From a virus: DNA of 64,000 nucleotides. The notes beneath the pieces were generated by a model, which was not told the DNA's origin, ran no database searches, and saw nothing but the letters and a program-made list of their open reading frames with translations. The DNA lies in IMG/VR virus record IMGVR_UViG_3300045988_126562, one strand, 5' to 3'. This document shows positions 24,634-42,126 of this stretch, piece after piece. Positions within the stretch are counted from its first letter, which is position 1, and the number at the start of each line of letters is the position of its first letter. The position numbers and the translations under genes were made by a program.

Positions 24634-24699
24634 AGGATTCATATAAACAGTCCAATATATCCCTAATATACTCTAGTTTAAATTTGCTGTAAGAATCCT
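24634..24699 (-). ncRNA. modular RNA unit (mini form)
   Basis: Closing helix AGGATTC/GAATCCT. 5' boundary TTACAGCAAAT, 3' boundary CCTGTAA. Confidence 0.45.
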
Positions 24700-24720
24700 T
24701 ATTTCTTTAATACAGTGATG

Positions 24721-24728
24721 CAAAGGTA
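24721..24728 (-). promoter_or_regulatory. Bacteroidota-type -7 promoter element candidate
   Basis: Minus strand reads TACCTTTG (TAnnTTTG) followed by CATCAC. The same TTTGCATCAC context recurs at 45112. Confidence 0.35.
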
Positions 24729-24811
24729 GTAATTCTTTTTTACTATTCCAAAATTTTCTATAAGATTTTTATACTAATAGTATACGTATATACTAAATAA
24801 GCGACCTATTG

Positions 24812-25237
24812 TTATAAGTCGCCTTTCTTTATTTTTTTATACAAAGAATAAGGAATTTCATTAAAATTTTCCTTCCCTTCTTCTCTTAATGCTATCATTT
24901 TTACTCCATTTCTGTAGAATACAGTAGGATCAGATTCCAATACATAGTTATCTTTTATATGATTCTCATTGCAATATTCATGGGAATTAAGAAACGGCAA
25001 AACAAGCTTAACCATCTCTCTTATAGGAATAGTAACTTCCTGCATCATAGGAATCCAGTTTGCACAGGTATTTACTGTATGAAGTGGAACGTTACTACCA
25101 GATATAGTTTGCATTCCAGAATTACCCATAAATCGTACATAATCATGGGCTACTATAATTCTTTTTTCTCTAGAAAAATCTAGATCTTCTAATTCTACTT
25201 CAAATTTTCTTTCACTAATCTGTTTTGTTATCTTCAT
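24812..25237 (-). CDS. hypothetical protein
   Basis: 141-aa ORF. Confidence 0.55.
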   Translation of the reverse strand: MKITKQISERKFEVELEDLDFSREKRIIVAHDYVRFMGNSGMQTISGSNVPLHTVNTCANWIPMMQEVTIPIREMVKLVLPFLNSHEYCNENHIKDNYVLESDPTVFYRNGVKMIALREEGKENFNEIPYSLYKKIKKGDL

Positions 25238-25253
25238 ATCTTAAAATTTAATG

Positions 25254-25594
25254 TGGACGATGAGGGATTCGAACCCTCGTCCTAACTACTTCTCAATAAC
25301 ATAGTATATGCGAAATTACCTTTTTATAGAAGGCTAACTAGGGGAAGCCGATTGGCATCCACTCCACCACTCCATTATAAGTTGGAGAACTATAGAAACC
25401 AATGGTCATTTCTGTTCCTAAGCTGACTTACACTCGACTCTCTTTGCAATTAAGCAGCGATACGAACTTCGTCGATTTCGCGAGAGAAAGAAATTGCATT
25501 ATTCTTTCCATTTAATTGTTTGTACTTATAAGGTAGTCACAACCTTTTCACCTATGTTACCGTTCGTCATAGCAGTCAAAAGCCTGTATCGCCC
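25254..25594 (-). ncRNA. ssrA: tmRNA (transfer-messenger RNA)
   Basis: The 5' GGGCGAT pairs with the 3' ATCGTCC-A, giving G3:U70 and A73. T arm GAGGG-TTCGAAT-CCCTC. Internal tag frame GCA ATT TCT ... GCT GCT TAA (25450..25497) encodes AISFSREIDEVRIAA. Confidence 0.8.
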
Positions 25595-25897
25595 TTATTT
25601 GCTATAGAATAAAATTTCTCCGTCAATGGTCTTTACTTCCCAACCACTACTTCTATAGAAATTTTCAACATTTCCTTCTTTATTATCCTGGAATGCTTTT
25701 CTTCTTTTATCCTTCTCGTCTCCACTATATTTAGTAAGTACTGCATCCATTATCTCTTCGGTACTTATACTAATAGGAGCTGAATCAGAAAATCTTTTTA
25801 CTAGAAGATCGTTTACTATTGCTATTACTTCATCATTTGCTAATTTAGCACGCAACTCTCTAGCTTTTCCAGGAGTTATAGGATCAACCTTAGCCAT
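25595..25897 (-). CDS. hypothetical protein
   Basis: 100-aa ORF. Confidence 0.55.
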   Translation of the reverse strand: MAKVDPITPGKARELRAKLANDEVIAIVNDLLVKRFSDSAPISISTEEIMDAVLTKYSGDEKDKRRKAFQDNKEGNVENFYRSSGWEVKTIDGEILFYSK

Positions 25898-25898
25898 A

Positions 25899-26297
25899 TT
25901 ATAATTCTTTTTGACTAGCTGTTACAGCCAATTTATCACATCTATTGTTATATTTATCATCTTTATGCCCCTTTACCCAAGTAAAAGTAACCATGTGATG
26001 AAACCTCATTGCCTTATCGAATCTCTTCCATAGGTCTACATTTTTTCTTCTTTGCCAACCCTTGACAGCACATCCAATAACATACTGTGAATCAGTTATT
26101 ATATTTAGAGCAGATGGTTCAGAAATGGATTCCATAGCTACTATACATGCCATCATTTCCATCTGATTATTTGTAGTATTAATATATGTCTTACTATATT
26201 CTAATACTTCATATCCATCTTTATCTACAATAATTAAGCCTATTCCTCCTTGCCCTCTGGCATAGGAATAGGCTCCATCGGTATAAACTGTATACAT
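25899..26297 (-). CDS. rnhA: ribonuclease H (type 1)
   Basis: YTDGA, NNQMEMMA, ITDSQYV and WVKGH...NRCDKLA supply the DEDD catalytic pattern. Confidence 0.85.
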   Translation of the reverse strand: MYTVYTDGAYSYARGQGGIGLIIVDKDGYEVLEYSKTYINTTNNQMEMMACIVAMESISEPSALNIITDSQYVIGCAVKGWQRRKNVDLWKRFDKAMRFHHMVTFTWVKGHKDDKYNNRCDKLAVTASQKEL

Positions 26298-26863
26298 TAG
26301 TAGATTACCAATGCTGATTTGGTCATATCAGAAGTTTGTAATTTATATACCTGCTTAATTGGAAGAATAATATTTCTATCCTCTATGTAAATTTCTGTAG
26401 TTTTGCCACAGTTTTTTCTTACCAAGTATTGTTGATATAGCCCTTCTCCTATGATATGATCAGAAGAAAAATCGGAAGGAGGGACAATAACATGATTAGT
26501 AGCCTGTTTCAACATCTCATTATTATAAGATAGTGAAGCTGATTCATCATATTCTACTACATTTTTAAACAAAGATCTTACTTTGTTTACTTTAGCAGGA
26601 TTAGCTTTATAGCTCACTCCTAGGAATGTAACATTCTCTGGCTCTTTACGCCATATTGTAGATGCCGTGTTCCAGGTAGCTAAATCAATAATCCCAAAGA
26701 GTAATGTAGATACTGGCCTTCTTACTTCGATGATGTTCTCAGAATTAATTCTTCCAGTTTCTGAAAAGAATAGTACATTGTCAAATGTTTTTACTGCAAT
26801 GCCTAGCACTCCAGTTTTAGTTTTTACTAAATCTCCTTGCTTTGCTACTAACTGCTTATTCAT
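26297..26863 (-). CDS. hypothetical protein
   Basis: 188 aa. Shares LGVSY and IGxGLY motifs with the upstream neighbour. Confidence 0.5.
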   Translation of the reverse strand: MNKQLVAKQGDLVKTKTGVLGIAVKTFDNVLFFSETGRINSENIIEVRRPVSTLLFGIIDLATWNTASTIWRKEPENVTFLGVSYKANPAKVNKVRSLFKNVVEYDESASLSYNNEMLKQATNHVIVPPSDFSSDHIIGEGLYQQYLVRKNCGKTTEIYIEDRNIILPIKQVYKLQTSDMTKSALVIY

Positions 26864-26864
26864 A

Positions 26865-27758
26865 TTATTTCTTTATTTTTAATGTTGCGTAATTTTGATA
26901 ATCCTCTCCTCCAATAGGCTGTTTAAATTTAACATATCCGGACACTCCATATATTTCTACTTTTGTATCATTAAAGCATACAACGGATACATCGCCCATA
27001 GAATGATTACTTAAAAATCCAATGAGTTCTGAATATAGTCCTTTTCCTATTGTTCTATTTTCTAGAAAATTCTTAGGAACTACAAGATAGAGTTTATCAC
27101 AAGTTTTAATATTTCTAATATTTTCCTCTTCTGATTTATCTCTATACCATTCTACTACTTCATATCCTTCTTGGGAAAGATAAGTAGCTGTTAAGTCTCT
27201 TCCAAAATACGGAGACATATAACTTACTCCTAAAAAGACTTTCACTTTTTGGATATTCATTCTGCTCCATACTACTTTGTACGAGTCAAATTCTCCAATT
27301 AATACCCCTCCTTCTGGATTTACTACTTTAGTTACTTTCTTCAAAAAGGAATCATTTACAACGGTTACACAATCCTTTGCTGGATTATAAGCCCTGAGCG
27401 TTCCTTTATAAGAGGAGATAACGTAAATACTTCCGTCCTCCAGTTTCACCATTTGTCCCTCAGATATGGAAGGAACATTGTTTTCTACCTCAACATCCCA
27501 AATTCCTTTAACAATCCAAAGAGATGCCTCAATTCCTTTTAAGAAGGAGGATACCATCCACTCCAACCATAAAATATCATCTAGAGTACATGCCATTTCT
27601 CCCTCTTTTAAACGAACGGCTCTTATCTTTTTTCCTAAAGATTTTGCTATAGGAGAAAGAGTTGTTACTATTTCTTCATCATTTTTGCATATGAAGTATT
27701 TACCTTCTAGATGCGTTTTGTAAAATTCTTGTTTAGTCATATTATTTAATTGTATCAT
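26865..27758 (-). CDS. hypothetical protein
   Basis: 297 aa. Its C-terminal part is paralogous to 26297..26863 (FLGVSY, IGKGLY). Confidence 0.5.
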   Translation of the reverse strand: MIQLNNMTKQEFYKTHLEGKYFICKNDEEIVTTLSPIAKSLGKKIRAVRLKEGEMACTLDDILWLEWMVSSFLKGIEASLWIVKGIWDVEVENNVPSISEGQMVKLEDGSIYVISSYKGTLRAYNPAKDCVTVVNDSFLKKVTKVVNPEGGVLIGEFDSYKVVWSRMNIQKVKVFLGVSYMSPYFGRDLTATYLSQEGYEVVEWYRDKSEEENIRNIKTCDKLYLVVPKNFLENRTIGKGLYSELIGFLSNHSMGDVSVVCFNDTKVEIYGVSGYVKFKQPIGGEDYQNYATLKIKK

Positions 27759-27777
27759 AAGTTTCTAATTTGAAAGG

Positions 27778-27864
27778 CGGAGAGCACTGGAATCGAACCA
27801 GACACCCATACGGAGTGCAATCTGCTTAGCAGGCAGTCCCTATCACCATCAAGGATTACTCTCC
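27778..27864 (-). tRNA. tRNA-Ser(GCU)
   Basis: GGAGAGT/GCTCTCC acceptor, loop CTGCTAA, long variable arm, T loop TTCGATT, discriminator G. Confidence 0.85.
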
Positions 27865-27913
27865 AAGTAAATTATGAGGAAAGCATTATTATGCCCCCCC
27901 CCATTTTCTAGAG

Positions 27914-28156
27914 TTACAGCTTAATCATGTCCTCAAACTTTTTAGCCATAGCACGATTGTCAGAGGCAATCTTATTCAGAGCTTCCATTTCTTCCTGAGC
28001 CTTTTTCATCTCTTCTTGCTTCTTAGCTGCCTGAGCTTGAGCTTTATCAGCTAAATTTAACAACTTAGTAATGGTCTTATTAAATATACTTAAGATTGCA
28101 TTACTTTTACTCAGCATATTAGCTGAACTTCTTGAAAACGGATTTGTAAAAATCAT
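27914..28156 (-). CDS. hypothetical coiled-coil protein
   Basis: 80-aa ORF. Confidence 0.5.
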   Translation of the reverse strand: MIFTNPFSRSSANMLSKSNAILSIFNKTITKLLNLADKAQAQAAKKQEEMKKAQEEMEALNKIASDNRAMAKKFEDMIKL

Positions 28157-28344
28157 AATCTTCTCTTACTTGTTAATTATTAGATATTATTTTAAATTTT
28201 TTATCAAAGGATAGACTATGTTTCTTTCTCCACATACTGTATCTATCCGGACAGAATCACTTCCCAGTAGGATATGGAAAGTCTTATATGAGTTCAATTC
28301 TCAAACGAGTCAGCGCTTTAAATTAACTCGTCATAGTCTATAAG
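28157..28344 (-). ncRNA. unassigned structured RNA candidate
   Basis: 10-bp closing inverted repeat ATAGACTATG/CATAGTCTAT enclosing the hairpins ACGAGT..ACTCGT and ACTTTCC..GGGAAGT. No ORF. Confidence 0.3.
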
Positions 28345-28391
28345 TGCCTTCAGTGGGACTCGAACCCACACGGCCGAAGCCACTAGATCCT

Positions 28392-29228
28392 CAAGCTATG
28401 AGTCTTAGCTTCGACTATGTCTTAACCATATCTTTCGACTTAGGTTGCTGGTATATAGTCTGTACACATTTATAAATTGGGTTGGGCGTCAGGTGTCCCT
28501 CCGTTGTTTTCAGCCTATGTTTTCAAGGCATCCTTCTTTTAAAACATACGAACAAAAACGAATGTTCCCAATTTAACTTAGCTCGGCGTTATTTACATTT
28601 ATAAGGCTGTAACCTTCACCGAATTAGCCAGCTTCTACTTCAAGAGTTTCCTCTTGAGCACTCAATACCTTTCCTGAATAATTGTCTGTTTGTGCATGAC
28701 AATTTGGACAAAGAACTTGTAGATTTTCTAAACGATTATCTGTATGAATTCCGTTTAAATGGTGTAATTCAAGTGAAATAGGATGTCCTAACCACTCAGT
28801 TAAACCGCAGCATTCACATTTATGTTCTTTTATTCCTTCAGACAGAAGACGATTACGGATATTATGAGAAGTCCATCCTGAATTTTCAATTAAAATTTCA
28901 GAAATGTCTTTCTTTTTGATTGACGGATGTTCTCCACTTTTTAATCCTTTATTCCATCGTGCTCCTGTAAAATGACTCATATCTAAATTTAATTGTTGTA
29001 TCTTCTTTTTTACTGTATTAAGATTACCTCCTTTTGGAGATATTCCGATAATTCTACACACTTCGGCGTAAGAATGTCCTTCTTTTACAGCATTAATAAA
29101 TTGTTCTTCTGTATATTTTTTACTTGCCATGGTATATTATTTTAATACACTATTATACTAATAAAAATTGTATACACAAAAAATAATTTTAACTTAATAC
29201 TTCCAATTAATTTAGATGTAATTTTTTT
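28392..29228 (-). mobile_element. group I intron with HNH ORF in the tRNA-Leu anticodon loop
   Basis: Exon ends in U and intron ends in G. The 3' non-coding part carries R/S-like elements GTACAGACTATATACC and TAAGACATAGTCGAAG (P7 pairing GACTAT/ATAGTC). Confidence 0.7.
28624..29130 (-). CDS. intron-encoded HNH homing endonuclease
   Basis: Paralog of 22264..22734. CECCG...LHHLNGIHTDNRLENLQVLCPNCH. Confidence 0.8.
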   Translation of the reverse strand: MASKKYTEEQFINAVKEGHSYAEVCRIIGISPKGGNLNTVKKKIQQLNLDMSHFTGARWNKGLKSGEHPSIKKKDISEILIENSGWTSHNIRNRLLSEGIKEHKCECCGLTEWLGHPISLELHHLNGIHTDNRLENLQVLCPNCHAQTDNYSGKVLSAQEETLEVEAG

Positions 29229-29277
29229 AAGTCTAGCGTGTCTACCAATTCCACCATGAAGGCTTTAACTCTTGGGT

Positions 29278-29610
29278 TTACAAGAGTAATAATAAAAATT
29301 CTTCTTCCACCGTATGACTGAAAGATAATTCCAATAGAGCCTTTTTAACTTTTATAAAAGCTTCTGTATCGCTAGAGTTCCATTCTGGCCATGCTCCACC
29401 TCCAGCCCTATATCCATATACTTTACTTAAAAAAGATTGATAGTCTCTTATTCCTAAGTCTTCGAATAATGAACATACTTTTGTACCAGAATGTCCAGTC
29501 ATAATTCTACCATCATTTAGAGTTTTACGCTCAACCACTTCTACGAATACAGACTTCTCCCTTAATTTAAATTCGTAGTGCTTTGTCCTTATTACAAATA
29601 CCTCTTCCAT
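29278..29610 (-). CDS. hypothetical protein with C-terminal EEEFLLLLL
   Basis: 110-aa ORF. Confidence 0.5.
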   Translation of the reverse strand: MEEVFVIRTKHYEFKLREKSVFVEVVERKTLNDGRIMTGHSGTKVCSLFEDLGIRDYQSFLSKVYGYRAGGGAWPEWNSSDTEAFIKVKKALLELSFSHTVEEEFLLLLL

Positions 29611-29626
29611 AAAACATATTATTTGG

Positions 29627-29700
29627 TGTTCCCCACCGGGATTGAACCGATAACCGCCTGATTATGAGTCAGGTGCTCTAACCAATTGAGCTAGGGGAAC
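29627..29700 (-). tRNA. tRNA-Met(CAU), elongator type
   Basis: GTTCCCC/GGGGAAC acceptor, loop CTCATAA, T loop TTCAATC. The 3' CCA is genomically encoded (29624..29626). Confidence 0.8.
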
Positions 29701-29708
29701 TTTAAAAA

Positions 29709-31675: not shown

Positions 31676-31677
31676 TC

Positions 31678-32153: not shown

Positions 32154-32158
32154 ATTTC

Positions 32159-34350: not shown

Positions 34351-34480
34351 AAGTTAGTTTTACCAGAATAGGACTCGAACCTATAACCTCTTGATAAAAT
34401 TCAAGGCTCTACCAATTGAGCTATACGTCTCTGGATTTAAGTTGGTAGACGTAAATTTTTTATATTGCTGTTCCTAACTT
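34351..34480 (-). ncRNA. modular RNA unit with tRNA-like domain (non-canonical order)
   Basis: Closing helix AAGTTAG/CTAACTT and boundary GAACAGCAAT. Inside: acceptor-type hairpin TACGTCT..AGACGTA, D arm TA-GCTC-AATTGGTA-GAGC, hairpin CTTGA-ATTTTA-TCAAG, T arm ATAGG-TTCGAGT-CCTAT. Confidence 0.45.
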
Positions 34481-34845: not shown

Positions 34846-34864
34846 AATTTCATTGATTTGGTAG

Positions 34865-35044: not shown

Positions 35045-35344
35045 TTATGCCGCATACTCAAGTATACCTTCTCTTATTAAGTCTTTAGATTTTTGTCTTT
35101 CCTTTTTAATTTCTCTGTGATTATCCATTTGATCAGATACATAAGAGTTTGTTACAGCCGTTTTCTTTAATAATTTAGAAAACTTAACTTTATCCAAAAA
35201 ATCTGTAATAGATTCGCATCTTTTTCCTATTCTATTTCTTTTACTTGGATTGTCTTGATACCAGTAAGAGTAAGAATAATAAATTTTTCTAGCTCTTGAT
35301 AGCCATTTTCTTTTGGCTAATTCTCTTCTTTGCTCTCTATTCAT
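35045..35344 (-). CDS. hypothetical basic protein
   Basis: 99-aa ORF. Confidence 0.5.
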   Translation of the reverse strand: MNREQRRELAKRKWLSRARKIYYSYSYWYQDNPSKRNRIGKRCESITDFLDKVKFSKLLKKTAVTNSYVSDQMDNHREIKKERQKSKDLIREGILEYAA

Positions 35345-35369
35345 ATTGATAAAGTTTAAAAAAATTAAC

Positions 35370-35472
35370 AGAAGACTATGCCGACTTGCACTTACGGCTG
35401 GATTTGAACCAGTTTAATTTGAATTTCAGTCAAATTTGTGAACCATTTTATTTGATTTGCTGTAAGTCTTCT
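35370..35472 (-). ncRNA. modular RNA unit with T-loop hairpin
   Basis: Closing helix AGAAGACT/AGTCTTCT. Boundaries TACAGCAAAT and TCTGTTA. Inside: TTTGA-CTGAAAT-TCAAA and CTGG-TTCAAAT-CCAG hairpins. Confidence 0.45.
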
Positions 35473-35480
35473 TATAAATC

Positions 35481-35584
35481 AGGATACCTAAACTCAATTG
35501 TGCTCCAAATAGCAATTCTCCACATTGGTGAATATAAGACTCGAACTTATTATAACTAGTTACTGAATTTGCTGTCTGTATCCT
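35481..35584 (-). ncRNA. modular RNA unit with circularly permuted tRNA-like domain
   Basis: Closing helix AGGATAC/GTATCCT. Order: T arm ATAAG-TTCGAGT-CTTAT, acceptor hairpin ATTCACC-AATGT-GGAGAAT, D arm GCT-ATTTGG-AGC. Confidence 0.55.
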
Positions 35585-35734
35585 TGTTTGATGGATGCCA
35601 GCCGTTTCTATTCCATCATTGCGTACTACGTTGCTGGCTAACGTCTAAGACTTCCATGTCCTCACGTTATCTTAGAATTAGTGTGATTATTATTGCCTAG
35701 CTAATTTCTTAGCTGGGAGGATTACGCTAAAGAG

Positions 35735-35807
35735 TACCCCCAACGGGATTCGAACCCGTGACTTCACATCGAAAGTGTGACGACTTAAACCACTTGTCGA
35801 TAGGGGC
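35735..35807 (-). tRNA. tRNA-Glu(UUC)
   Basis: GCCCCTA/TGGGGGT acceptor, arm TCACA-CTTTCGA-TGTGA, T arm ACGGG-TTCGAAT-CCCGT. Confidence 0.85.
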
Positions 35808-35875
35808 ATATATAGGTTACTAATCTCACGATCCATAACCTATTAAATTTATTATGAACACTTTTTATTGTGTTT

Positions 35876-36973
35876 TTAATCCTGAGGAATACTCATCATA
35901 ATTGTAGCACGATTCCAATTATTTTCCTCATATTGTTGTACTTTATCTCCTTCAGCACTGACTACCAAACGAGATTCCTCTACTCCATATTTTACTAATA
36001 CCTCTTTCACTGATTCAGCTCTCTTTTTACTTAATTCCATATTATATTCTGGAGTTCCTGTATCAGCGTCTGCATATCCAGTAATAGAAATACGTATATC
36101 TTTATTATCCTTCAAATAAGTAGCTATGTTCTCTAAATTTGCCATTTGATCATCAGCTATCTTAGATGAATTGATAGTAAATCTTACTGTAGTAGGAGCC
36201 ACCTCTTTTAAAACAACAATATTTTCTACTGTTACAGTATCAATAGTGGTTACGACCTTTGGAGCTTTTTCACATTCCTGTCTAAGTTTATTGATTTCCT
36301 CATTTAGAGCGTCAATATCCTCTTGATCATAAGATGGGATGTATGTGAATCCTCTAGTCCCATCATGATTTTTAAACTTATATGTGATGCCAGCTGTTAA
36401 ATTACACATTCCATCATATCTAGCTCCTCCTACTACTCCGTCGAACTTATCATTAAGAGCAGACATATTTCCTTCTATATTAAGCTGAATAGATTTAGAT
36501 AGATCAACATTTACCTGAACTCCTACTCTAGGAACTACATAATCTCCTATTGGTAGTACTCCATTATCAAATGTATGTGCATAACCTACTCCTCCTATCA
36601 ATACTAAGTTAACTGGTCTGTCATAATTCTGAGAGAATAAATTTAACGGATTCAGCATTGCATCTAAGTAAAATCCATATCTGTTAATAACAGAAATTTC
36701 ATTTGTAGGAACAACATGATTCTGTCCCCACTCTCCTTGAATACGAGTTCCCAAAACTGGAGTCCAATATTTATTAAGGGAAACATTTACCGTTGGACCA
36801 AAAATTCTCTTTGTGTCCACTGATTTGTAATTATCCCCAAATGTGGCATTAGTTCCAGCTCCTACACTGATAGACCAATTATCAGTGAATTTATACTTCG
36901 GCATTCTTAACTCTTGTGCATTTAAGCACATAACGCTCATAAGAGCAATTAAAAGAAATAATACTTTCTTCAT
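35876..36973 (-). CDS. OmpA-family outer-membrane protein
   Basis: Signal peptide, beta-barrel-like N-terminal half and a C-terminal OmpA-like domain (ITGYADADTGTPEYNMELSKKRAESV). Confidence 0.75.
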   Translation of the reverse strand: MKKVLFLLIALMSVMCLNAQELRMPKYKFTDNWSISVGAGTNATFGDNYKSVDTKRIFGPTVNVSLNKYWTPVLGTRIQGEWGQNHVVPTNEISVINRYGFYLDAMLNPLNLFSQNYDRPVNLVLIGGVGYAHTFDNGVLPIGDYVVPRVGVQVNVDLSKSIQLNIEGNMSALNDKFDGVVGGARYDGMCNLTAGITYKFKNHDGTRGFTYIPSYDQEDIDALNEEINKLRQECEKAPKVVTTIDTVTVENIVVLKEVAPTTVRFTINSSKIADDQMANLENIATYLKDNKDIRISITGYADADTGTPEYNMELSKKRAESVKEVLVKYGVEESRLVVSAEGDKVQQYEENNWNRATIMMSIPQD

Positions 36974-37000
36974 CTTACTTGTTTAATTTAAAAAAAATAT

Positions 37001-37435
37001 TTATATACACTGTAGAAATTTTTCAATTTCCTCAACTATTTTATCATATTCTTCTTTAGATATTTCCTTTGCTATATCACTTTGTCCATAAGTTATATAA
37101 GGATTATTAAACCACAAAGGATTTATATGTCTATGCTTTTCTATAGACACCGAAATTTTATCTCTGCTTTTATACTTTTCATATAAAGTGTACCCAGAAT
37201 CAAAGTTTCTACTGTTTTGCTCAAATAGAGATTTGTCTATATAAACAAATCCAGTAACTTCAAAATTGAATTTCAGAATAAAATATTTCCCTATTAGATT
37301 TTCATACCATTTATTTTTATTTTCTTCTAGCTGCTCTAATTCTTTCTTTCTTTTCTTAGATTCCTCTTCTTCAGCTTCAATATATTCTTTTAGAGAGGCA
37401 TCTGGATGTATTCTGTAATAATCTTTCACATTCAT
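37001..37435 (-). CDS. hypothetical protein
   Basis: 144-aa ORF. Confidence 0.55.
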   Translation of the reverse strand: MNVKDYYRIHPDASLKEYIEAEEEESKKRKKELEQLEENKNKWYENLIGKYFILKFNFEVTGFVYIDKSLFEQNSRNFDSGYTLYEKYKSRDKISVSIEKHRHINPLWFNNPYITYGQSDIAKEISKEEYDKIVEEIEKFLQCI

Positions 37436-37456
37436 AGTAAAAATTCATTAATATTG

Positions 37457-37528
37457 TGGACACGGCGGGACTCGAACCCGATCCTCCTGAGTGCAAATCA
37501 AGCGCATTCCCAATTATGCTACCGGCCC
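37457..37528 (-). tRNA. tRNA-Ala(UGC)
   Basis: GGGCCGG 5' end with a G3:U70 pair, loop TTTGCAC, T loop TTCGAGT. Two mismatches in the acceptor stem. Confidence 0.7.
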
Positions 37529-37541
37529 ATAAAGCTGGATT

Positions 37542-37895
37542 TTACACCAGCAAAAGATCTTCTTCATTAGGAATATCCAGCACTATTGGATCAATTCCGA
37601 AATCAGAATACTCTATAATACTCATTGGAAGCCAACAGTTAGGTAAACAATCAAGATCTACCCTAAAAGAAGAATCACTAGTATCTACTTCTTCAATATC
37701 AGATAGTGTTAAAGGTGTAGATAATTCTAGAATATCAACATCTATACCTACTTCTTCGTCTTCATGTTCAAGCTCACAGCCTGCATATTCCCAACCTTCT
37801 TCTAATAATTCTTCCTCTGTCTTGATTCTAAATTTTCCAGATTCAATCAAAGCCAGAAATTCCGTTTCATTCAGATCTTTAACTTTCTTTCTCAT
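37542..37895 (-). CDS. hypothetical acidic protein with C-terminal EEDLLLV
   Basis: Track ORF 37542..37958 trimmed to Met22 because the upstream codons translate a tRNA. Confidence 0.5.
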   Translation of the reverse strand: MRKKVKDLNETEFLALIESGKFRIKTEEELLEEGWEYAGCELEHEDEEVGIDVDILELSTPLTLSDIEEVDTSDSSFRVDLDCLPNCWLPMSIIEYSDFGIDPIVLDIPNEEDLLLV

Positions 37896-37916
37896 ATTTA
37901 TAATATTGTGAATTTG

Positions 37917-38003
37917 CGCACGCGGAAGGGTTCGAACCTTCGATGGGGCTTTCGCCACGGTAGATTAACAGTCTACTGCCTTCGACCACTCGGCCACACG
38001 TAC
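37917..38003 (-). tRNA. tRNA with GUU anticodon on a class II (Ser-like, long variable arm) scaffold
   Basis: GTACGTG/CGCGTGC acceptor, Ser-type D arm GCC-GAGTGGTCGAA-GGC, arm GTAGA-CTGTTAA-TCTAC, 18-nt variable arm, T arm GAAGG-TTCGAAC-CCTTC, discriminator G. Confidence 0.75.
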
Positions 38004-38010
38004 TAGTAAC

Positions 38011-38076
38011 AGAATACTTTGTTTAGCTTGATAATTTAAAAGATTATTGCTTAAAATAAATTGCTGTAAGTATTCT
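38011..38076 (-). ncRNA. modular RNA unit (mini form)
   Basis: Closing helix AGAATACTT/AAGTATTCT. Boundaries ACAGCAAT and TCTGTTA. Confidence 0.45.
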
Positions 38077-38081
38077 TATAC

Positions 38082-38205
38082 AGATAACCATTGTTTTATA
38101 AACTGGCGCTCTACCAACTGAGCTATTACTAAGGCACTTCTTAGTAAATGAGGCTCGAACTCATGACTTCTAGTTGGGACAAACATAATTTGCTGTCGGT
38201 TATCT
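38082..38205 (-). ncRNA. modular RNA unit with circularly permuted tRNA-like domain
   Basis: Closing helix AGATAACC/GGTTATCT. Order: ACTAG-AAGTC-ATGAG-TTCGAGC-CTCAT, acceptor hairpin TTACTAA-GAAGTGCC-TTAGTAA, D arm TA-GCTC-AGTTGGTA-GAGC, then CCAGT. Confidence 0.6.
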
Positions 38206-38227
38206 AAATATTATTAACTTAACCGAG

Positions 38228-38302
38228 TAGGCTGCCCCAGATTTGAACTGGGAACCTTCTGAGTATCAGTCAGATGCTCTGACCAAGTTGAGCTAACAGC
38301 CT
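38228..38302 (-). tRNA. tRNA-Ile(GAU)
   Basis: AGGCTGT/GCAGCCT acceptor, loop CTGATAC, T loop TTCAAAT. Confidence 0.85.
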
Positions 38303-38309
38303 ATCTTCA

Positions 38310-38513
38310 TCAAGGAATATACTCCCTGATATTTCCTATTGCTACTTCACATTCTGAAGATGCAATATGTTTAGAATAATTAGCATCTTTTGCTAATGCT
38401 TCTCTACAATCTCTATCACAAGGGAACTTCGAGCATTCAAGTCTGCAAGTTCCTAAAAGCCTGCTGTGGTGAGATTTATCCCAAATCCACACGTCAAAAA
38501 TAAAATGTCTCAT
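38310..38513 (-). CDS. hypothetical Cys-rich protein
   Basis: 67-aa ORF. Confidence 0.45.
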   Translation of the reverse strand: MRHFIFDVWIWDKSHHSRLLGTCRLECSKFPCDRDCREALAKDANYSKHIASSECEVAIGNIREYIP

Positions 38514-38533
38514 TTTGCCAATATTTAAAGTTT

Positions 38534-38824
38534 TTATTTATATTTTTCTTTCCATTTTTCGCATTTGCGTTTCACTGACTTACCAAGTAAAGAAGGAAAT
38601 TCATCACCATACGTTAATCTTCCCAAATCTACTATATTTATTAATGTGTCTGCTAATTCATCACACAAATCCATTTCATTTATTTTCTTATAGCTAGATA
38701 ATCCTGTGATAGTACTGATAGCTCCCATCACTTCTCCAGACTCTTCTGCCAGTTTAATCGCAACATCCTGTATAGTCCTCCCATTTTTAATAGAAGAGCC
38801 TACTTCCATAATTTCTTTGATCAT
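38534..38824 (-). CDS. MazG-like nucleotide pyrophosphohydrolase (small)
   Basis: 96 aa. KLAEESGEVMGAI ... CDELADTLINIVDL matches the EExGE...ExxD pattern. Confidence 0.55.
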   Translation of the reverse strand: MIKEIMEVGSSIKNGRTIQDVAIKLAEESGEVMGAISTITGLSSYKKINEMDLCDELADTLINIVDLGRLTYGDEFPSLLGKSVKRKCEKWKEKYK

Positions 38825-39093
38825 TCTTCGATTATTCCTTTTTTAGGTACTGGTATTTTTACTATCCCAGTTCCATTACATGTTTCACATTCTGTTTCAT
38901 CACATAGTAAGCCCATCCCTAACGTACAAATGGCTAATCCAGCTTTCTGGCCCGTACTCATTTCTACACTCCCTGTTCCTTTACATTTTGGACAAATTTC
39001 TTCTACATATTGTCTTTTTGGAGTAGTTGGATTACTATGTGGGCAGTTTCCTGTACAGGAAACAGATAACAGGATAAATAACAAATATTTCAT
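38821..39093 (-). CDS. lipoprotein with DnaJ-type CxxCxGxG zinc-finger repeats
   Basis: Lipobox-like LLSVSC; CPKCKGTG and CETCNGTG. Confidence 0.5.
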   Translation of the reverse strand: MKYLLFILLSVSCTGNCPHSNPTTPKRQYVEEICPKCKGTGSVEMSTGQKAGLAICTLGMGLLCDETECETCNGTGIVKIPVPKKGIIEE

Positions 39094-39488
39094 ATTAATT
39101 TCAAATATAATGGTTTGTCTTTATTTTTTGCTACTTTAAATCCAATAGGAATTAGGGATCTTTCATATATTCTTCTAAGTCTATTGTTAGCTGGATATAC
39201 CAATAATACTTTTCCCTTTAAAAAATTCTTCCATATGTTATTGTTAATAAAGTTCATTAAACATTGTTTAGCCCAAGATAATGACTTCATTCCATCCTTT
39301 CCAACTATTAAGTTTTCTTGAAATCCATTCTTTCGTTTAGTAGCAATGTAAAAGGTGACGTTCATAAACCCTGGTTTTTTATATATTTCATAGATTTCCA
39401 AAGTTATTATTTGTCCATATTCATTCTTAGATTTGTAATAATATGAGTTTACATGCTCTCTATCTTTTTGTAGATCAATATCATACAT
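39090..39488 (-). CDS. hypothetical protein
   Basis: 132-aa ORF. Confidence 0.55.
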   Translation of the reverse strand: MYDIDLQKDREHVNSYYYKSKNEYGQIITLEIYEIYKKPGFMNVTFYIATKRKNGFQENLIVGKDGMKSLSWAKQCLMNFINNNIWKNFLKGKVLLVYPANNRLRRIYERSLIPIGFKVAKNKDKPLYLKLI

Positions 39489-39493
39489 ATTAA

Positions 39494-39970
39494 CTATCTA
39501 TTATTAATAATGTAATTTAGAGTTCCTTTACTAGAAATATTGTATTTATACATTAACTCCTTATAAGACATTCCATTTTGCCTATCCATTTGTATTTTAA
39601 GTACAGTGTCATCAGAGTATTTTTTATTAGCATTTGAAGATTTTTCTTGTCTTACTTTTTCTGAAATATCCATCATATTATCGGAACTCGTACCAATGTC
39701 TATATTTGAAATAGAATTATTTAGTAGGTTTCCATCTAAATGCCTAACTACTATATTATCATTATATATTTTTTCTCCGAATTTGCTATATGCTTGGAAT
39801 CTATGAAAATAAACTTTTATGATTTTTCCTTCTATTCTAAATGAAAAATATTTGTATTTACTCTTACCACTAGTTCCTACTGATTTATTATGTTTATTAT
39901 AAACTATTCCATCAGGAGTTATTGTATAACCTCTTTCTTTAGCTACTATTTCAAATTTACTGTAATCCAT
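39494..39970 (-). CDS. free-standing HNH (HNH_3-type) homing endonuclease
   Basis: FHRFQAY...VVRHLDGNLLNNSISNIDIGTSSDN plus a C-terminal HTH-like tail. Ends in TAG; lies next to tRNA-fMet. Confidence 0.65.
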   Translation of the reverse strand: MDYSKFEIVAKERGYTITPDGIVYNKHNKSVGTSGKSKYKYFSFRIEGKIIKVYFHRFQAYSKFGEKIYNDNIVVRHLDGNLLNNSISNIDIGTSSDNMMDISEKVRQEKSSNANKKYSDDTVLKIQMDRQNGMSYKELMYKYNISSKGTLNYIINNR

Positions 39971-40033
39971 GTATTATTAATAGAATTAGTTGATTATCCA
40001 GCTACACCACGTGGAGGTTTCTATTATGTAGCC

Positions 40034-40105
40034 TTGCGGAGGCAGGATTCGAACCTGCGACTTTCAGCTTATGAGGCTGACGAGCTACCTCTGCTCTACT
40101 CCGCG
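40034..40105 (-). tRNA. initiator tRNA-fMet(CAU)
   Basis: C1xA72 mismatch (CGCGGAG/CTCCGCA), loop CTCATAA, and close overall resemblance to the bacterial initiator layout. Confidence 0.8.
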
Positions 40106-40333
40106 ATGTTTGGTAGCTAATTTATATCCGCTACCCAGGGATATCTCTCTTACCAGTGAGACACGGACTCTTCTAACCGTAGAGCACGGCTGGTTACTGA
40201 CGCTCCAGACACGGCATTTAGACTGAAAATGTCGAAACAGTAATTGAAAGCCTACAATGGGAGGTCATTACTCTCCCACTTTCTAGTTGTTACCCTAGAT
40301 GTGCAATTCTACACCACATTGTGTCTTTCCTAG
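40106..40333 (-). ncRNA. unassigned structured RNA candidate (228 nt)
   Basis: G+C-rich and ORF-free, filling the exact gap between two tRNAs. Hairpins GGGAGAG..CTCCC and GGTAGC..GCTACC. Confidence 0.4.
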
Positions 40334-40405
40334 AGTCGGTAATGGGAATCGAACCCACATCTCCAGTTTGGAAGACTGGAGCACTAACCGTTGTGCTATA
40401 CCGAC
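40334..40405 (-). tRNA. tRNA-Gly(UCC)
   Basis: GTCGGTA/TACCGAC acceptor, loop CTTCCAA, discriminator U. Confidence 0.85.
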
Positions 40406-40490
40406 GATTTAATTAGTTTATAAACTGAAACGCACACTACTACTATGAAAGAAAACAATATAGACCATAAAAATACTCTAAACAGAAATA

Positions 40491-40736
40491 TTAACCATTC
40501 CATACTTTTCCAGATCGTATTTTAGAATATACTTTACTTAAAGCTTCATTTTTATATTTTGTAAGTTTCATTCTAGTTATAGCATTTGCAAATTCAGTTG
40601 GTCCCACCTTACTATAGAAATGAAAAGAACCATCTTTCCACTGAACCACAATTATAGAGCCTACTTTATAGGCTGTTTTAATTGGGCTTTTGAATGAGAA
40701 TTTAATATAAGATTTAATCTTGTTTATAACATTCAT
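40491..40736 (-). CDS. hypothetical protein
   Basis: 81-aa ORF. Confidence 0.5.
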   Translation of the reverse strand: MNVINKIKSYIKFSFKSPIKTAYKVGSIIVVQWKDGSFHFYSKVGPTEFANAITRMKLTKYKNEALSKVYSKIRSGKVWNG

Positions 40737-40751
40737 ATTAATAACAATTTG

Positions 40752-40826
40752 TGCTCCTTGTAAGATTCGAACTTACGACCACTTGAATGTAAGTCAAGCA
40801 CTCTAAACCAACTGAGCTAAAGGAGC
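40752..40826 (-). tRNA. tRNA-Val(UAC)
   Basis: GCTCCTT/AAGGAGC acceptor, loop CTTACAT, T loop TTCGAAT. Confidence 0.85.
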
Positions 40827-40834
40827 GATTAAGC

Positions 40835-40992
40835 AAGAGACCACCTTTTTTATTTGTTTTAAATCCAGGCTAAACTACTAACTTCTAGGTATTTCAGAAA
40901 GTTAGATAAGGATTCGAACCTTATTTCTTTGTCTAATTGAAATTTAATTAAAACTATAAAGATTAAGAAAATAATCTTGCTGTATGTCTCTT
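40835..40992 (-). ncRNA. modular RNA unit with circularly permuted tRNA-like domain
   Basis: Closing helix AAGAGAC/GTCTCTT and boundary ATACAGCAAG. Order: T arm TAAGG-TTCGAAT-CCTTA, extended acceptor hairpin TCTAACT..AGTTAGT, D arm TTTA-GCCTGGATT-TAAA. Confidence 0.55.
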
Positions 40993-41001
40993 TATAATAA
41001 C

Positions 41002-41119
41002 AGAAGACCTTTAAATACGTTGCTCTACCAATTGAGCTAAAATGAGTAAACTCATCTACAGGACTCGAACCTATAACCCACGGCTTACCAGGCTAAATAT
41101 ATATTGCTGCTAGTCTTCT
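41002..41119 (-). ncRNA. modular RNA unit: circularly permuted tRNA-Thr(GGU)-like gene
   Basis: Closing helix AGAAGAC/GTCTTCT. Order: GC-CTGGTAA-GCCGT-GGGTT-ATAGG-TTCGAGT-CCTGT-AGATGAG-T-TTA-CTCATTT-TA-GCTC-AATTGGTA-GAGC-A-ACG. Confidence 0.65.
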
Positions 41120-41125
41120 TTTACT

Positions 41126-41279
41126 TGGGAGAATTTCCTATCTCCCGCAATAAAGTGCTAAGGTATCATAATGAAATGAGGCTCAGCGGTTTCGACTTTA
41201 CTAGGATAGTTCACGATGTTTTGGCAATCATCTAACTATTGTCAACCTATTATTATGCCAAATTGTAGTTGACTTGTTG
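41126..41279 (-). ncRNA. unassigned structured RNA candidate
   Basis: Hairpins GGGAGA..TCTCCC, GTCAAC..GTTGAC and TTGGCA..TGCCAA. No ORF. Confidence 0.3.
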
Positions 41280-41352
41280 GGGAGAAGCTAAGAATCGAAC
41301 TTAGTCCTTTATATCCACAGTATAACGTTCTAGCCGTTAAACTACAACTCCC
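41280..41352 (-). tRNA. tRNA-His(GUG) with encoded G-1
   Basis: G(-1) opposite C73, loop CTGTGGA, T arm CTAAG-TTCGATT-CTTAG. Two U-U mismatches in the acceptor. Confidence 0.75.
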
Positions 41353-41537
41353 ATTTATATTGAAATGAAAACGACAGTTCTGCAAGAGGAAGAAAAGGTA
41401 GCTTACCTATTTATGATAGGTAATATACCCGTAGGAAGCATTCTGGGATCCATTTTCTCTAAGAATTTCCCAATTTTCCTAATTACTTTCTTCATAAACT
41501 GTAAAAATTTAGTTAAACATATAATTTATCTATGTAG

Positions 41538-41610
41538 CCGAAAGCGGGGGACTCGAACCCCAAACTCCACAGTGACAGTGTGGTATTATGCCAATTTCAC
41601 TACGCCTCCG
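41538..41610 (-). tRNA. tRNA-Asp(GUC)
   Basis: CGGAGGC/GCTTTCG acceptor (two G:U pairs), arm CCACA-CTGTCAC-TGTGG, discriminator G. Confidence 0.75.
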
Positions 41611-41722
41611 TTGTTGTAGCATCTATCCTCACGAACCAATGCTACTTTTATTTATTATCATGGCAAAATGATATACTTCACCTCAAAGTTTGATATTTCT
41701 ATCAGGGACAATGAGGGATTTG

Positions 41723-41816
41723 TGGGCCGAGAGAGATTCGAACTCCCCTACCGCAAAGTCCATACGACTATTTGTTAAAGCGGGGTGGATTTACAGTCCA
41801 CTGCCGTTATCGACCC
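41723..41816 (-). tRNA. atypical 94-nt tRNA-like gene with Tyr (GUA) anticodon arm
   Basis: GGGTCGA/TCGGCCC acceptor, perfect arm GTGGA-CTGTAAA-TCCAC, T arm GGGAG-TTCGAAT-CTCTC. Only 8 nt stand where the D arm should be, and the variable insert is ~35 nt. Confidence 0.5.
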
Positions 41817-41824
41817 ATTAATAC

Positions 41825-41891
41825 AGAGTGCAAAGATAGTTATTTTATTCCCAATAATAAAATTTAAATTGTTAATTGCTGTTAACACTCT
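41825..41891 (-). ncRNA. modular RNA unit (mini form)
   Basis: Closing helix AGAGTG/CACTCT. Boundaries TTAACAGCAAT and TCTGTAT. Confidence 0.4.
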
Positions 41892-41900
41892 TATTTTTAC

Positions 41901-41963
41901 AGAAACCTTTTGTGGTTATGTTCATTAATGGTAAACATTTATAAAATTTGCTGTTAGGCTTCT
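41901..41963 (-). ncRNA. modular RNA unit (mini form)
   Basis: Closing helix AGAAGCC/GGTTTCT. Boundaries TAACAGCAAAT and TCTGTAA. Confidence 0.4.
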
Positions 41964-42018
41964 TGTTTTTGGATTTATGCCTTATAGTGTCTTATAATTT
42001 TATTAGCTTCCGAATTAC

Positions 42019-42126
42019 GGGGCACTCTTCCACTTTTTATTATTTATATTCTACTATAATACATAAATCCGATAATTTAAATTAAAAGTAATGATAGATG
42101 TATGAAAAATTTGCTGTTTGTGCCCC
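42019..42126 (-). ncRNA. modular RNA unit (AT-rich insert)
   Basis: Closing helix GGGGCAC/GTGCCCC. Boundaries AAACAGCAAAT and CCCGTAA. Confidence 0.4.

Follow-up and report, generated by a model that had tools for sequence, protein, structure and literature searches.

The DNA analysed here is a 64,000-nt stretch of a virus (IMG/VR record IMGVR_UViG_3300045988_126562), referred to below as the window. Its minus strand carries eleven copies of a modular unit in which a short helix joins the two ends and a conserved motif follows the 5' strand of that helix. The units belong to an RNA family with covarying closing helices, and this family is tightly linked, in phages and in bacteria, to a gene for a DUF2828/DUF7788 protein with a Ro60-like predicted fold. 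The eleven units appear to be genes of small structured non-coding RNAs, transcribed with the tRNA array in which they lie, and they look like Y-RNA-like partners of the Ro60-like protein that is encoded just upstream of them. The family is widespread and apparently undescribed, and would represent a variant of the Ro60/Y-RNA kind of system. The protein partner, the circular permutation of the tRNA-like inserts in the layout of YrlA RNAs, and a match to dictyostelid Class I RNAs go beyond the initial annotation of this DNA.

The window is phage-like, with about 32% G+C, and its minus strand holds 26 tRNA genes and a transfer-messenger RNA (tmRNA) gene between 16.7 and 50.1 kb. The initial annotation had described eleven units within this array; reading of the strand and a script confirmed all eleven on the minus strand, with the coordinates and helices collected in Table 1. 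Their minus-strand consensus is 5'-A/AGR-NNNN(N)/N0-3/ACAGCAA(W)U ... insert ... /(N)NNNN-YCU/GU(W)A-3', where slashes separate the segments. The constant part, which we call the platform, consists of a closing stem of 6-9 bp that is free in sequence and different in every copy, an A/AG start and a CU/GU end, and a single-stranded (U)ACAGCAA right 3' of the 5' strand. The variable module is either a hairpin resembling an anticodon stem-loop, in the mini units, or a circularly permuted tRNA-like domain. The two helix strands (a and a') are complementary in all copies, with one G.U pair in unit 10, and the a/a' helix is present in the minimum-free-energy fold of all ten units that were folded. 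The window has 17 copies of the heptamer ACAGCAA, none of them on the plus strand; the expectation is 6.8 +/- 2.8, and none of 100 shuffles reached 17. ACAGCAA is found in ten units, unit 8 reading AGCAGCAA instead, and the 3' tail begins with G in all eleven but follows CUGU(U)A in only about seven (unit 2 has CUUGUU, unit 4 CCUGAU, unit 7 CUUGCU and unit 11 CCCGUA). The core CAGCAA is invariant in 10 of the 11 units, and bacterial variants read UCAGCAA.

All units are intergenic, and no minus-strand open reading frame (ORF) of at least 50 amino acids overlaps them. The tandem arrangement noted initially is borne out by four pairs (4-3, 6-5, 8-7 and 10-9), and units 1, 5, 7 and 9 end 4-8 nt 5' of a tRNA or tRNA-like gene. 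Units 1, 5, 9 and 10, and more loosely unit 3, form the mini class, with spans of 63-103 nt. The related element at 45177-45233 that lacks ACAGCAA is also real and reads AAGUAAGAAG ... CUUCUUACUU-GUUA. A pseudoknot between ACAG and CUGU, which are complementary and are paired in the YrlA alignment, was considered and rejected, because a linker of only 0-3 nt makes this pairing incompatible with the a/a' helix.

We built a covariance model (R1) from alignment A3 of 83 non-redundant mini units of related loci. Run over the whole window with filters off, R1 recovered units 5, 10, 3, 9 and 1 at E = 4e-11 to 3e-7, three of these five strong matches being members of its own training set. Units 4 and 11 were found at E of about 0.015 and unit 2 as a partial match only; units 6, 7 and 8, which have the largest inserts, were missed, as was the variant at 45177-45233. 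No convincing twelfth unit was found over the window; a candidate at 16337-16445 (15 bits) was rejected, being inside a coding sequence and lacking a proper 3' strand. At gathering thresholds Rfam reported only tRNAs and the tmRNA in the window, and no unit of the window or of 11 related loci passed the threshold of any family. With relaxed thresholds, only two families fell on units of the window, YrlA and Dicty_Class_I_RNA. Megablast of the array against GenBank phages gave only one match, of 276 bp, and promoter and terminator scans showed no enrichment over shuffles.

Table 1. Units and associated features in the window and in cultured phages. R1, covariance model of mini units; RF01414, Rfam family of dictyostelid Class I RNAs; RF02553, YrlA.
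Feature	Position	Strand	Boundary sequences	Setting, insert and scores
Unit 1	24634..24699	(-)	AGGAUUC-UU-ACAGCAAAU ... GAAUCCU-GUAA	mini; ends 7 nt 5' of tRNA-Lys(UUU); R1 43.8 bits, E = 3e-7; RF01414 22.4 bits
Unit 2	34351..34480	(-)	AAGUUAG/CUAACUU	helix around a complete, circularly permuted tRNA-Lys(UUU)-like body that runs from the acceptor 3' strand + ACCA through a loop, the acceptor 5' strand, the D arm and the anticodon arm to the T arm (D-then-T); Rfam tRNA model, 34.7 bits (34367-34424, model positions 7-64)
Unit 3	35370..35472	(-)	AGAAGACU-U-ACAGCAAAU ... AGUCUUCU-GUUAA	insert with anticodon-loop-like hairpin UUUGA-CUGAAAU-UCAAA and T-arm-like hairpin; R1 46.2 bits, E = 9e-8; RF01414 26 bits
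Unit 4	35481..35584	(-)	AGGAUAC-AG-ACAGCAAAU ... GUAUCCU-GAUU	tandem with unit 3; degenerate tRNA-like insert with T arm; R1 23.2 bits
Unit 5	38011..38076	(-)	AGAAUACUU-ACAGCAAUU ... AAGUAUUCU-GUUA	mini; ends 7 nt 5' of tRNA-Asn; anticodon-stem-loop mimic AUAAU-CUUUUAA-AUUAU (Lys UUU type); R1 61.1 bits (training-set member); RF01414 28.9 bits, model 1-56, exact match to CUUACAGCAAUU
Unit 6	38082..38205	(-)	AGAUAACC-G-ACAGCAAAU ... GGUUAUCU-GUAUAA	encloses permuted tRNA-like domain made of T arm, acceptor hairpin of 7 bp and D arm; YrlA aligned over full length at 23.6 bits, with ACAGCAAAU on YrlA 5' consensus aCGGCGAAUGC; fold z = -3.4
Unit 7	40835..40992	(-)	AAGAGAC-AU-ACAGCAAGA ... GUCUCUU-GCUUAA	ends 8 nt 5' of tRNA-Val; insert with T arm and acceptor-like hairpin
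Unit 8	41002..41119	(-)	AGAAGAC-U-AGCAGCAAU ... GUCUUCU-GUUA	tandem with unit 7; encloses T arm, acceptor hairpin, D arm; RF02553 35.7 bits, E = 1.5e-4, model positions 23-88
Unit 9	41825..41891	(-)	AGAGUG-UUA-ACAGCAAUU ... CACUCU-GUAUUAA	mini; immediately 5' of aberrant tRNA-Tyr-like gene; R1 43.9 bits; RF01414 23 bits
Unit 10	41901..41963	(-)	AGAAGCC-UA-ACAGCAAAU ... GGUUUCU-GUAAAA	mini; one G.U pair; tandem with unit 9; R1 49 bits
Unit 11	42019..42126	(-)	GGGGCAC-AA-ACAGCAAAU ... GUGCCCC-GUAAU	starts 20 nt 3' of tRNA-Pro(UGG); R1 22.9 bits
Variant or decayed unit	45177..45233	(-)	A-AGUAAGAAG ... CUUCUUACUU-GUUA	small internal hairpin; no CAGCAA
Ro60-like protein gene	42950..44653	(-)		567 aa; same direction as the units, just upstream
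Decayed start-codon unit remnant	44615..44656	(-)	caAUGUUUGACAaGaAAC	encodes MFDKK; at the DUF2828 gene's 5' end
Leptolyngbya phage Lbo-JY46				two units directly 3' of the gene; 63.4 and 57 bits
Citrobacter phage Moogle (L083, NC_027293)				two units between tRNA genes, just past the 'RNA-binding protein' gene
Escherichia phage Bas63 (L153)	5750-5825, 5917-5983, 6372-6448			three units, found with R1, in spacers between tRNA genes; in MZ501086 at 82068-82143, 82235-82301 and 82690-82766
Listeria phage LP-048 (L156)				three units a short way upstream of the gene
Mycobacterium phage BobsGarage				one unit 3' of the 'Ro-like RNA binding protein' gene

The plainest case of conserved complementarity is given by the orthologous units that follow tRNA-Pro. 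The window has GGGGCAC/GUGCCCC, and two related loci have GGGAUGC/GCAUCCC (L001) and GGAGUGC/GCACUCC (L002); all are exact complements, and the trio is an example of kept pairing that needs no assumption. For a broader view we assembled an alignment (A5) of 50 R1 matches, mostly from loci outside the training set. In A5, which was fitted to the model and whose pairing numbers therefore lean towards structure, 99.1% of cells are paired, compared with 68.5% in column shuffles and 35-49% when the register is slid. Double-sided changes occur at all seven pairs, compensatory cells number 97 compared with 24 in shuffles, and the covariation score is 0.742 compared with 0.197. Loss of complementarity in homologous loci had been named initially as the observation that would speak against a selected structure; complementarity is kept both in the orthologues and in A5, which supports the earlier claim of a selected RNA structure. 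RNA of this strand is favoured over a DNA hairpin by the strand bias with respect to the neighbouring gene, given below, and by the mismatches: where a helix has a single internal mismatch, it is G.U in 12 cases and A.C in two, an excess that fits RNA transcribed from the strand of the units.

Homologues of the window protein (30-99% identity) are encoded in 79 viral contigs. In these, a script requiring motif and helix detected 383 units on the strand of the gene but 39 on the opposite strand, with helices of 7-9 bp on the former and mostly 6 bp on the latter, a median span of 72 nt and up to 11-13 copies per locus. On the gene strand the 5' flank is A in 317 of 383 units and the 3' flank is G in 291. 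The covariance-model search of related genomes that the initial annotation had proposed was carried out with R1 on 83 loci (1.05 Mb) and gave 241 matches at E <= 0.1, 240 of them on the gene strand and one on the opposite strand. The density of units falls off with distance from the DUF2828 gene: in 57 loci with full flanks there are 129 units at 0-2 kb downstream, 41 at 2-4 kb and 30 at 4-6 kb; upstream there are 14 within 2 kb and none further away, and a further nine lie on the start codon. In 69 loci from bacterial assemblies, mostly metagenome bins, every one of the 39 hits shares the strand of the gene. The unit of Saprospiraceae, an 8-Mb chromosome (L118) among them, begins 5-20 nt past the stop codon and carries the variant UCAGCAA; in Planctomycetota, Gemmataceae and Fusibacter its place is 5' of the gene, at a distance of a few hundred nt. 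The linkage holds in gut, cyanobacterial, Felix-O1-like, Listeria and mycobacterial phages as well as bacterial chromosomes. The Lbo-JY46 locus has a single tRNA in 15 kb, and the 'RNA-binding protein' of Moogle matches DUF2828 at 98.8 bits and DUF7788 at 147.6 bits. A reverse test started from 120 viral stretches that match ATAAGAN6ACAGCAAA. A closing helix was present in 22 of them, and the gene accompanied nine of these 22 and none of the 98 without a helix.

These data bear on two rival explanations. The first holds that the units act as DNA, in single-stranded form, as attC-like hairpin recombination sites or miniature mobile elements that shuffle tRNA cassettes. The core of an integron attC site is GTTRRRY, and inverted repeats of variable sequence followed by G-TT(A) are reminiscent of it; the lengths of 60-160 nt are attC-like too, and the mosaic array has the units interspersed with tRNA genes. 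An attC site would be a DNA hairpin symmetric with respect to strand, with R/L boxes, extrahelical bases and an integrase linked to it. Against this stand the strand bias with respect to the neighbouring gene (240:1 in viruses, 39:0 in bacteria), the excess of G.U over A.C mismatches, the T-loop, D-loop and anticodon-loop mimics, which only make sense in RNA, and a copy placed inside the coding start of an mRNA. Moreover, the best Rfam matches are expressed small RNAs, and no integrase or transposase was seen among the 20 largest ORFs of the window that were scanned. We consider this explanation the least probable of all, and highly improbable in absolute terms.

The second explanation treats the units as cis-acting processing or stability signals of a polycistronic tRNA transcript, such as entry sites for RNase III, E or P, or as spacers, with no role in trans and no connection to DUF2828. 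Phage early transcripts often have stem-loops as processing sites. The position of units 1, 5, 7 and 9 shortly before a tRNA or tRNA-like gene, and of unit 11 shortly after one, would suit such a role, and the tRNA-like domains could attract RNase P. However, a plain processing hairpin needs neither a single-stranded CAGCAA nor conserved termini. The units track the DUF2828 gene even where there is no tRNA array, their density decays with distance from that gene, and the reverse test ties them to it; an identical architecture also exists in dictyostelids as free, abundant small RNAs (PMC7919456). Processing signals alone are therefore an unlikely account, and we continue with the reading of the units as RNA partners of the DUF2828 protein.

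Several observations concern the loci of the named phages. tRNA-Pro(UGG) is the first tRNA gene 3' of the DUF2828 gene in the window phage, its relatives, Moogle and Bas63 (window 42147-42223 on the minus strand; L001 12239-12314; L002 11662-11736; L083 9186-9262; L153 5581-5657), a micro-synteny conserved across proteins that are only 24% identical. For Moogle (NC_027293, 9186-13872) the RefSeq feature table, as returned, places the tRNA genes opposite to the 'RNA-binding protein' gene, while ARAGORN and Rfam put all tRNAs on the strand of that gene; ARAGORN also reports unannotated tRNAs for Met (9433-9509) and His (12786-12862). In LP-048 an RtcB-like tRNA-splicing ligase (6804-8015) lies 1.3 kb downstream of the DUF2828 gene and echoes the rsr-yrlBA-rtcBA RNA-repair operon of Salmonella.

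The gene for the Ro60-like protein is the largest ORF adjoining the array, with one small ORF and tRNA-Pro between it and unit 11. Its product combines an alpha-helical repeat domain (DUF2828) with a vWA/MIDAS domain (DUF7788). Pfam recognizes DUF7788 at 3.8e-8 and DUF2828 at 2e-4, the latter below the cut-off, and relatives of the protein pass both cut-offs; the protein also matches PHROG 850 'RNA-binding protein', and NCBIfam has no model for it. An AlphaFold model based on 64 diverse homologues has a predicted local distance difference test (pLDDT) score of 84.8 and a predicted template modelling (TM) score of 0.85. When this model was compared with the PDB by Foldseek, the top ten matches were all Ro60/Rsr structures (E = 1e-7 to 5e-5 and a TM of at most 0.54, over 584-599 aligned columns). 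The best were those of X. laevis (1YVP, 1YVR and 2I91; E about 1e-7, TM 0.50-0.54), and human Ro60, D. radiodurans 2NVO and Thermus phage phiLo 9L5Y were also included; matches past the top ten cover the vWA domain only. A weaker model, built earlier on 20 close homologues (pLDDT 62.7), gave the same ranking. The MIDAS residues of the DxSxS...T...D pattern (D341, S343, S345, T412 and D443) are invariant. Given the fold match and the invariant MIDAS, we conclude that the protein is of Ro60-like architecture as modelled, and is not a TROVE member by sequence. Homology searches with it returned, among the best 120 matches listed, only phage and bacterial relatives. DUF2828 proteins are encoded in at least 710 GenBank phage genomes, and also in bacteria; the phages include Felix-O1-like, Listeria P100-like, Staphylococcus, Campylobacter, Vibrio and mycobacterial ones, and some of these phages are candidates for therapy.

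The start codon of the DUF2828 gene itself falls within a unit in 16 of 124 loci. These units read AAG-AUG-UUU-(A/G)AC-AGC-AAA, encoding MF(N/D)SK, and (A)ACAUCU-G follows at a distance of about 50 nt; the AUG is thereby part of the closing helix, and Ser-Lys is encoded by CAGCAA. A unit in this place is indirect but specific evidence that the protein recognizes the platform, and it suggests, by analogy, translational autoregulation. The coat protein of MS2 and its operator are the classic example of such control by an RNA-binding protein.

The distinction made initially between mini units and units with tRNA-like inserts is well supported, and the tRNA-like domains are moreover circularly permuted in the manner of YrlA. 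Mini units, which have no tRNA body, make up about 60% of the family. In 134 non-redundant mini units, hairpins with 7-nt loops number 66 compared with about 19 in shuffles, and an anticodon-like hairpin (stem of at least 5 bp, 7-nt loop, U2, purine 6) occurs in 41 of them compared with 3.4 +/- 1.8 after shuffling; the commonest loop, CUUUUAA, is the anticodon loop of tRNA-Lys(UUU). Among 96 large units a T arm is present in 62, directly followed in 28 by an acceptor-like hairpin, and the order of arms is T-then-D in 17 and D-then-T in three. Units 6 and 8 of the window have a T arm (of the GGUUCGAGUCC type), a 7-bp hairpin made of both acceptor strands and a D arm (AGCUCAAUUGGUAGAGC), that is, a circularly permuted tRNA body with no proper anticodon arm.

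Permutation of this kind raises the question of whether the units are tRNA genes in circularly permuted or split form, of the kind found in Cyanidioschyzon merolae and some archaea, in which the helix and boundary motifs would direct cleavage and ligation to functional tRNAs. The array in which the units lie does hold 26 tRNA genes, in units 6 and 8 the acceptor 5' strand and D arm come only after the T arm and acceptor 3' strand, and unit 2 has every tRNA element in permuted order with an internal ACCA. Nevertheless, the mini units that make up most of the family have no body from which a tRNA could be formed. Most of the tRNA-like inserts have no anticodon arm and have an acceptor stem closed by a short loop, which is the layout of YrlA and not of a precursor; by inspection only unit 2 has all arms, and units 6 and 8 have no matching anticodon stem. 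No bulge-helix-bulge is visible by eye, the junction being a plain helix plus a conserved 7-nt single-stranded motif. The platform is also found beside DUF2828 genes with few or no tRNAs (Lbo-JY46, Saprospiraceae), and on the start codon of the gene. Permuted tRNA genes are thus a very improbable explanation, and the tRNA-like domains are better viewed as modules carried by partner RNAs of the Ro60-like protein.

Such partner RNAs are known. Y RNAs are encoded beside the Ro60 gene and are bound by Ro60, and YrlA has a permuted tRNA-like domain and a GNCGAA motif; the motif proposed for Ro60 binding, near the 5' end of Y RNAs, is GNCGAA(N0-1)G (Chen 2014, PMC4201824). Like YrlA, the phage units lie on the same strand as, and within a few kb of, the gene for a ring-shaped HEAT + vWA protein (in the phage by predicted fold), have paired 5' and 3' ends with a short conserved motif near the 5' end, and occur as several paralogous RNAs per locus, some of which, like YrlB, have no tRNA module. 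Units 6 and 8 have the whole of the permuted tRNA-like domain, from T arm over closed acceptor stem to D arm, and unit 7 has part of it; the five mini units lack it. As measured by the linkage criterion of Y RNAs (about 4 kb, same strand as Ro60), linkage is very strong here, to a partner that is Ro60-like by predicted fold only. The phage system differs in that its protein is DUF2828/DUF7788 and not Pfam TROVE, in that most members are minis of about 60 nt with anticodon-loop mimics, and in copy numbers that reach 11-13 per locus.

The Ro60 of Thermus phage phiLo binds two adjacent Y-like RNAs (Yrl1/Yrl2) and the host PNPase, and hijacking of host PNPase has been proposed as an anti-defence strategy (PMC12135203; PDB 9L5Y). 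A phage-encoded ring protein of Ro60 type with adjacent phage-encoded RNAs is common to phiLo and the window, where the partnership is our proposal. In phiLo, however, the Ro60 is recognizable, a CGAA motif is located in a stem-bulge-stem, the two RNAs are upstream of the gene, and there is no tRNA array. In the PhageMaP study, gp130 of phage Bas63 counters the Ppl defence; the authors noted its Ro60-like structure and guessed that Y RNAs are found among the tRNA genes downstream of gp130, and the RNA was not identified (bioRxiv 10.1101/2024.10.10.617714). The Bas63 protein is 84.7% identical to that of Moogle, which is 24% identical to the window protein, and the gene order in Bas63 (gene, tRNA-Pro, array) is that of the window. 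What we find differs from the authors' guess, as the units occupy the spacers between tRNA genes and are not the tRNA genes themselves. In the literature and in Rfam we found no paper or family that describes the RNA itself.

By analogy with Ro60, which contacts the stem and the 5'-strand motif GNCGAA of Y RNAs, the platform would be the binding site of the ring-shaped protein. The tRNA-mimicking module would then be the effector end, recruiting or decoying enzymes that recognize tRNAs; host tRNA-directed nucleases, PNPase-type exonucleases and repair enzymes are candidate targets. The platform copy on the protein's own start codon would provide autoregulation of translation of the MS2 coat protein/operator type, and the boundary motifs may serve as processing sites. 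Since the Bas63 homologue is needed against Ppl, the ribonucleoprotein is probably a counter-defence or RNA quality-control device, one that would accompany large phage tRNA sets. It seems probable to us that this scheme as a whole, from ring binding and engagement of tRNA-recognizing enzymes to feedback through the mRNA copies, is correct. DUF2828 'RNA-binding proteins' have so far had no described RNA partner, though one of them is a proven anti-defence factor, and the units would provide an actual RNA family that can be searched for and that is located exactly in phages amenable to cultivation. They would also enlarge the repertoire of tRNA mimics by two types, anticodon-loop minis and permuted tRNA bodies; the spacers between phage tRNA genes do have content, and an 'extra' tRNA-like sequence in them is not necessarily a tRNA.

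A number of points weigh against this proposal. The units are known from DNA sequence alone, and they were partly picked for having a helix, so that pairing percentages are inflated by construction; it is the strand, distance and reverse tests that provide independent evidence. The relationship to Ro60 rests on a predicted structure with TM of about 0.5: Pfam TROVE matches neither the window protein nor the relatives tested, and phmmer and a 34-sequence profile run against PDB sequences gave no match at all, solved Ro60 chains included. The phage motif is (U)ACAGCAA and not GNCGAA(N)G, and when ACAGCAAAU is aligned with the YrlA consensus aCGGCGAAUGC both G's are changed to A. YrlA scores reach 35.7 bits (unit 8), 23.6 bits (unit 6) and 28.2 bits (L013), compared with a gathering score of 69, and RF01414 never attains its gathering score of 41.5 bits in the window, in 11 further loci or in L041, which is why the units are not filed under that family. 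The window gene has no functional start-codon unit, but a remnant (AUGUUUGACAaGaAAC) with no 3' strand. The T4-like Aeromonas phage Aeh1 has the gene and only a weak R1 match (16.2 bits, E = 0.32). Finally, the published model of Ppl involves degradation of DNA, not of tRNA.

The weak match in Aeh1 (L154) overlaps an annotated 'tRNA-Val' of 122 nt (8151-8272), which is too long for a tRNA and may be a divergent tRNA-like partner RNA. In the window, a tRNA-Tyr(GUA)-like gene (41720-41820, minus strand) directly after unit 9 comprises acceptor stem, T arm and the anticodon arm GUGGA-CUGUAAA-UCCAC, with about 6 nt in the place of the D arm and a 'variable' region of about 37 nt; neither ARAGORN nor Rfam calls it. 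Four intergenic stretches of the array on the minus strand (40110-40330, 35590-35730, 41120-41280 and 41610-41720) have no ORF, tRNA or Rfam match, appear by eye to be richer in G+C with many complementary segments, and may represent further structured RNAs outside the classes named here. A tRNA of suppressor type (anticodon CUA; 23577-23648, minus strand; ARAGORN label 'Pyl') suggests that TAG is read through or recoded in the window phage; the tmRNA is located at 25251-25594. A 400-aa ORF at 17268-18470 (minus strand), adjoining tRNA-Cys and tRNA-Trp, has a weak SPFH/Band-7 match (E = 0.0012) and a match to PHROG 11908. Burroughs and Aravind reportedly proposed in 2016 that SPFH proteins are scaffolds of RNA-repair systems with tRNA-like RNA. 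Two further ORFs, at 20378-21688 and 35876-36973 (both minus strand), encode one protein with Ig-like domains and a C-terminal DUF6383 / weak Por-secretion-tail match and another that is OmpA-like with a Bacteroidota-style signal peptide; together, these sequence features point to a Bacteroidota host. Near DUF2828 genes of related viral contigs we observed a Hatchet ribozyme (L052, 960-1144; 55.4 bits, above the gathering score), a RAGATH-1 hammerhead just upstream of the gene (L013, 5823-5910; 49 bits, below threshold) and a group I intron (L059, 12767-13054; 92 bits). One contig of 105 kb (L003, IMG/VR UViG_3300045988_115313) is 99% identical to the window.

The closest resemblance of the mini units is to the Class I RNAs of dictyostelid social amoebae, whose family, RF01414, is their best Rfam match. 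Work on these RNAs is said to include Aspegren 2004 and Avesson 2011. On the window RF01414 matches units 5, 3, 9 and 1 with 22.4-28.9 bits, at full length and with the correct strand and boundaries; as reported E-values are corrected for 4227 families, the family-specific E of these four matches is about 2e-5 to 1e-3. Elsewhere it gives 39.7 bits in L041 and six more matches of about 24.5 bits, all on units. Class I RNAs have a 6-bp covarying stem joining their ends, a length of about 60 nt and a variable remainder; an 11-nt motif, CCUUACAGCAA, lies beside the 5' stem strand, and the RNAs start with AAG and end with CUGU (Kjellin 2021, PMC7919456). None has been found outside Dictyostelia, in searches that did not include phages (PMC7919456).

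The likeness appears to extend to each of these features. In the phage units, too, a short covarying stem of free sequence joins the 5' end to the 3' end, and (CC)UUACAGCAA, of which the first two C's are not conserved in the phage, stands immediately behind the 5' strand of the stem, in predicted single-stranded form. In the 11-nt motif U3, C6, C9, A10 and A11 are near-invariant, and the phage counterpart (U)UACAGCAA stands 0-3 nt past the stem. The AAG ... CUGU termini, with G pairing to C, correspond to A-AG(R) ... (C)U-GU or GA in the phage DNA, and the remainder is variable and A/U-rich in RNAs of about 60 nt. The mini units thus appear to share all five defining features of Class I RNAs, the termini being judged from DNA, and the resemblance seems too detailed to dismiss. 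The phage units differ in having stems of 7-9 bp instead of 6, in being embedded in polycistronic tRNA arrays, and in being able to carry tRNA-like inserts of 50-140 nt. Class I RNAs have a DUSE promoter about 60 nt upstream, a eukaryotic element not expected in a phage, and are expressed as abundant discrete RNAs of 42-65 nt. The phage units are linked to a DUF2828 gene, whereas the known binder of Class I RNAs is the RRM protein Rnp1A.

It is conceivable, although we would sooner expect otherwise, that dictyostelid Class I RNAs and the phage and bacterial units are one class, with a DUF2828-type Ro60-like protein as the conserved partner. If so, the Y RNAs of amoebae would be the Class I RNAs, for which no molecular function has come to light since 2004 and which may derive from bacteria or phages that amoebae have eaten, and the phage modules would be baits bringing tRNA-targeting defence enzymes to a Ro-like ring, or shields of phage tRNAs. 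The comparison would then provide a first molecular lead on abundant, developmentally regulated RNAs that were thought to be unique to social amoebae and whose mechanism has been open for two decades.

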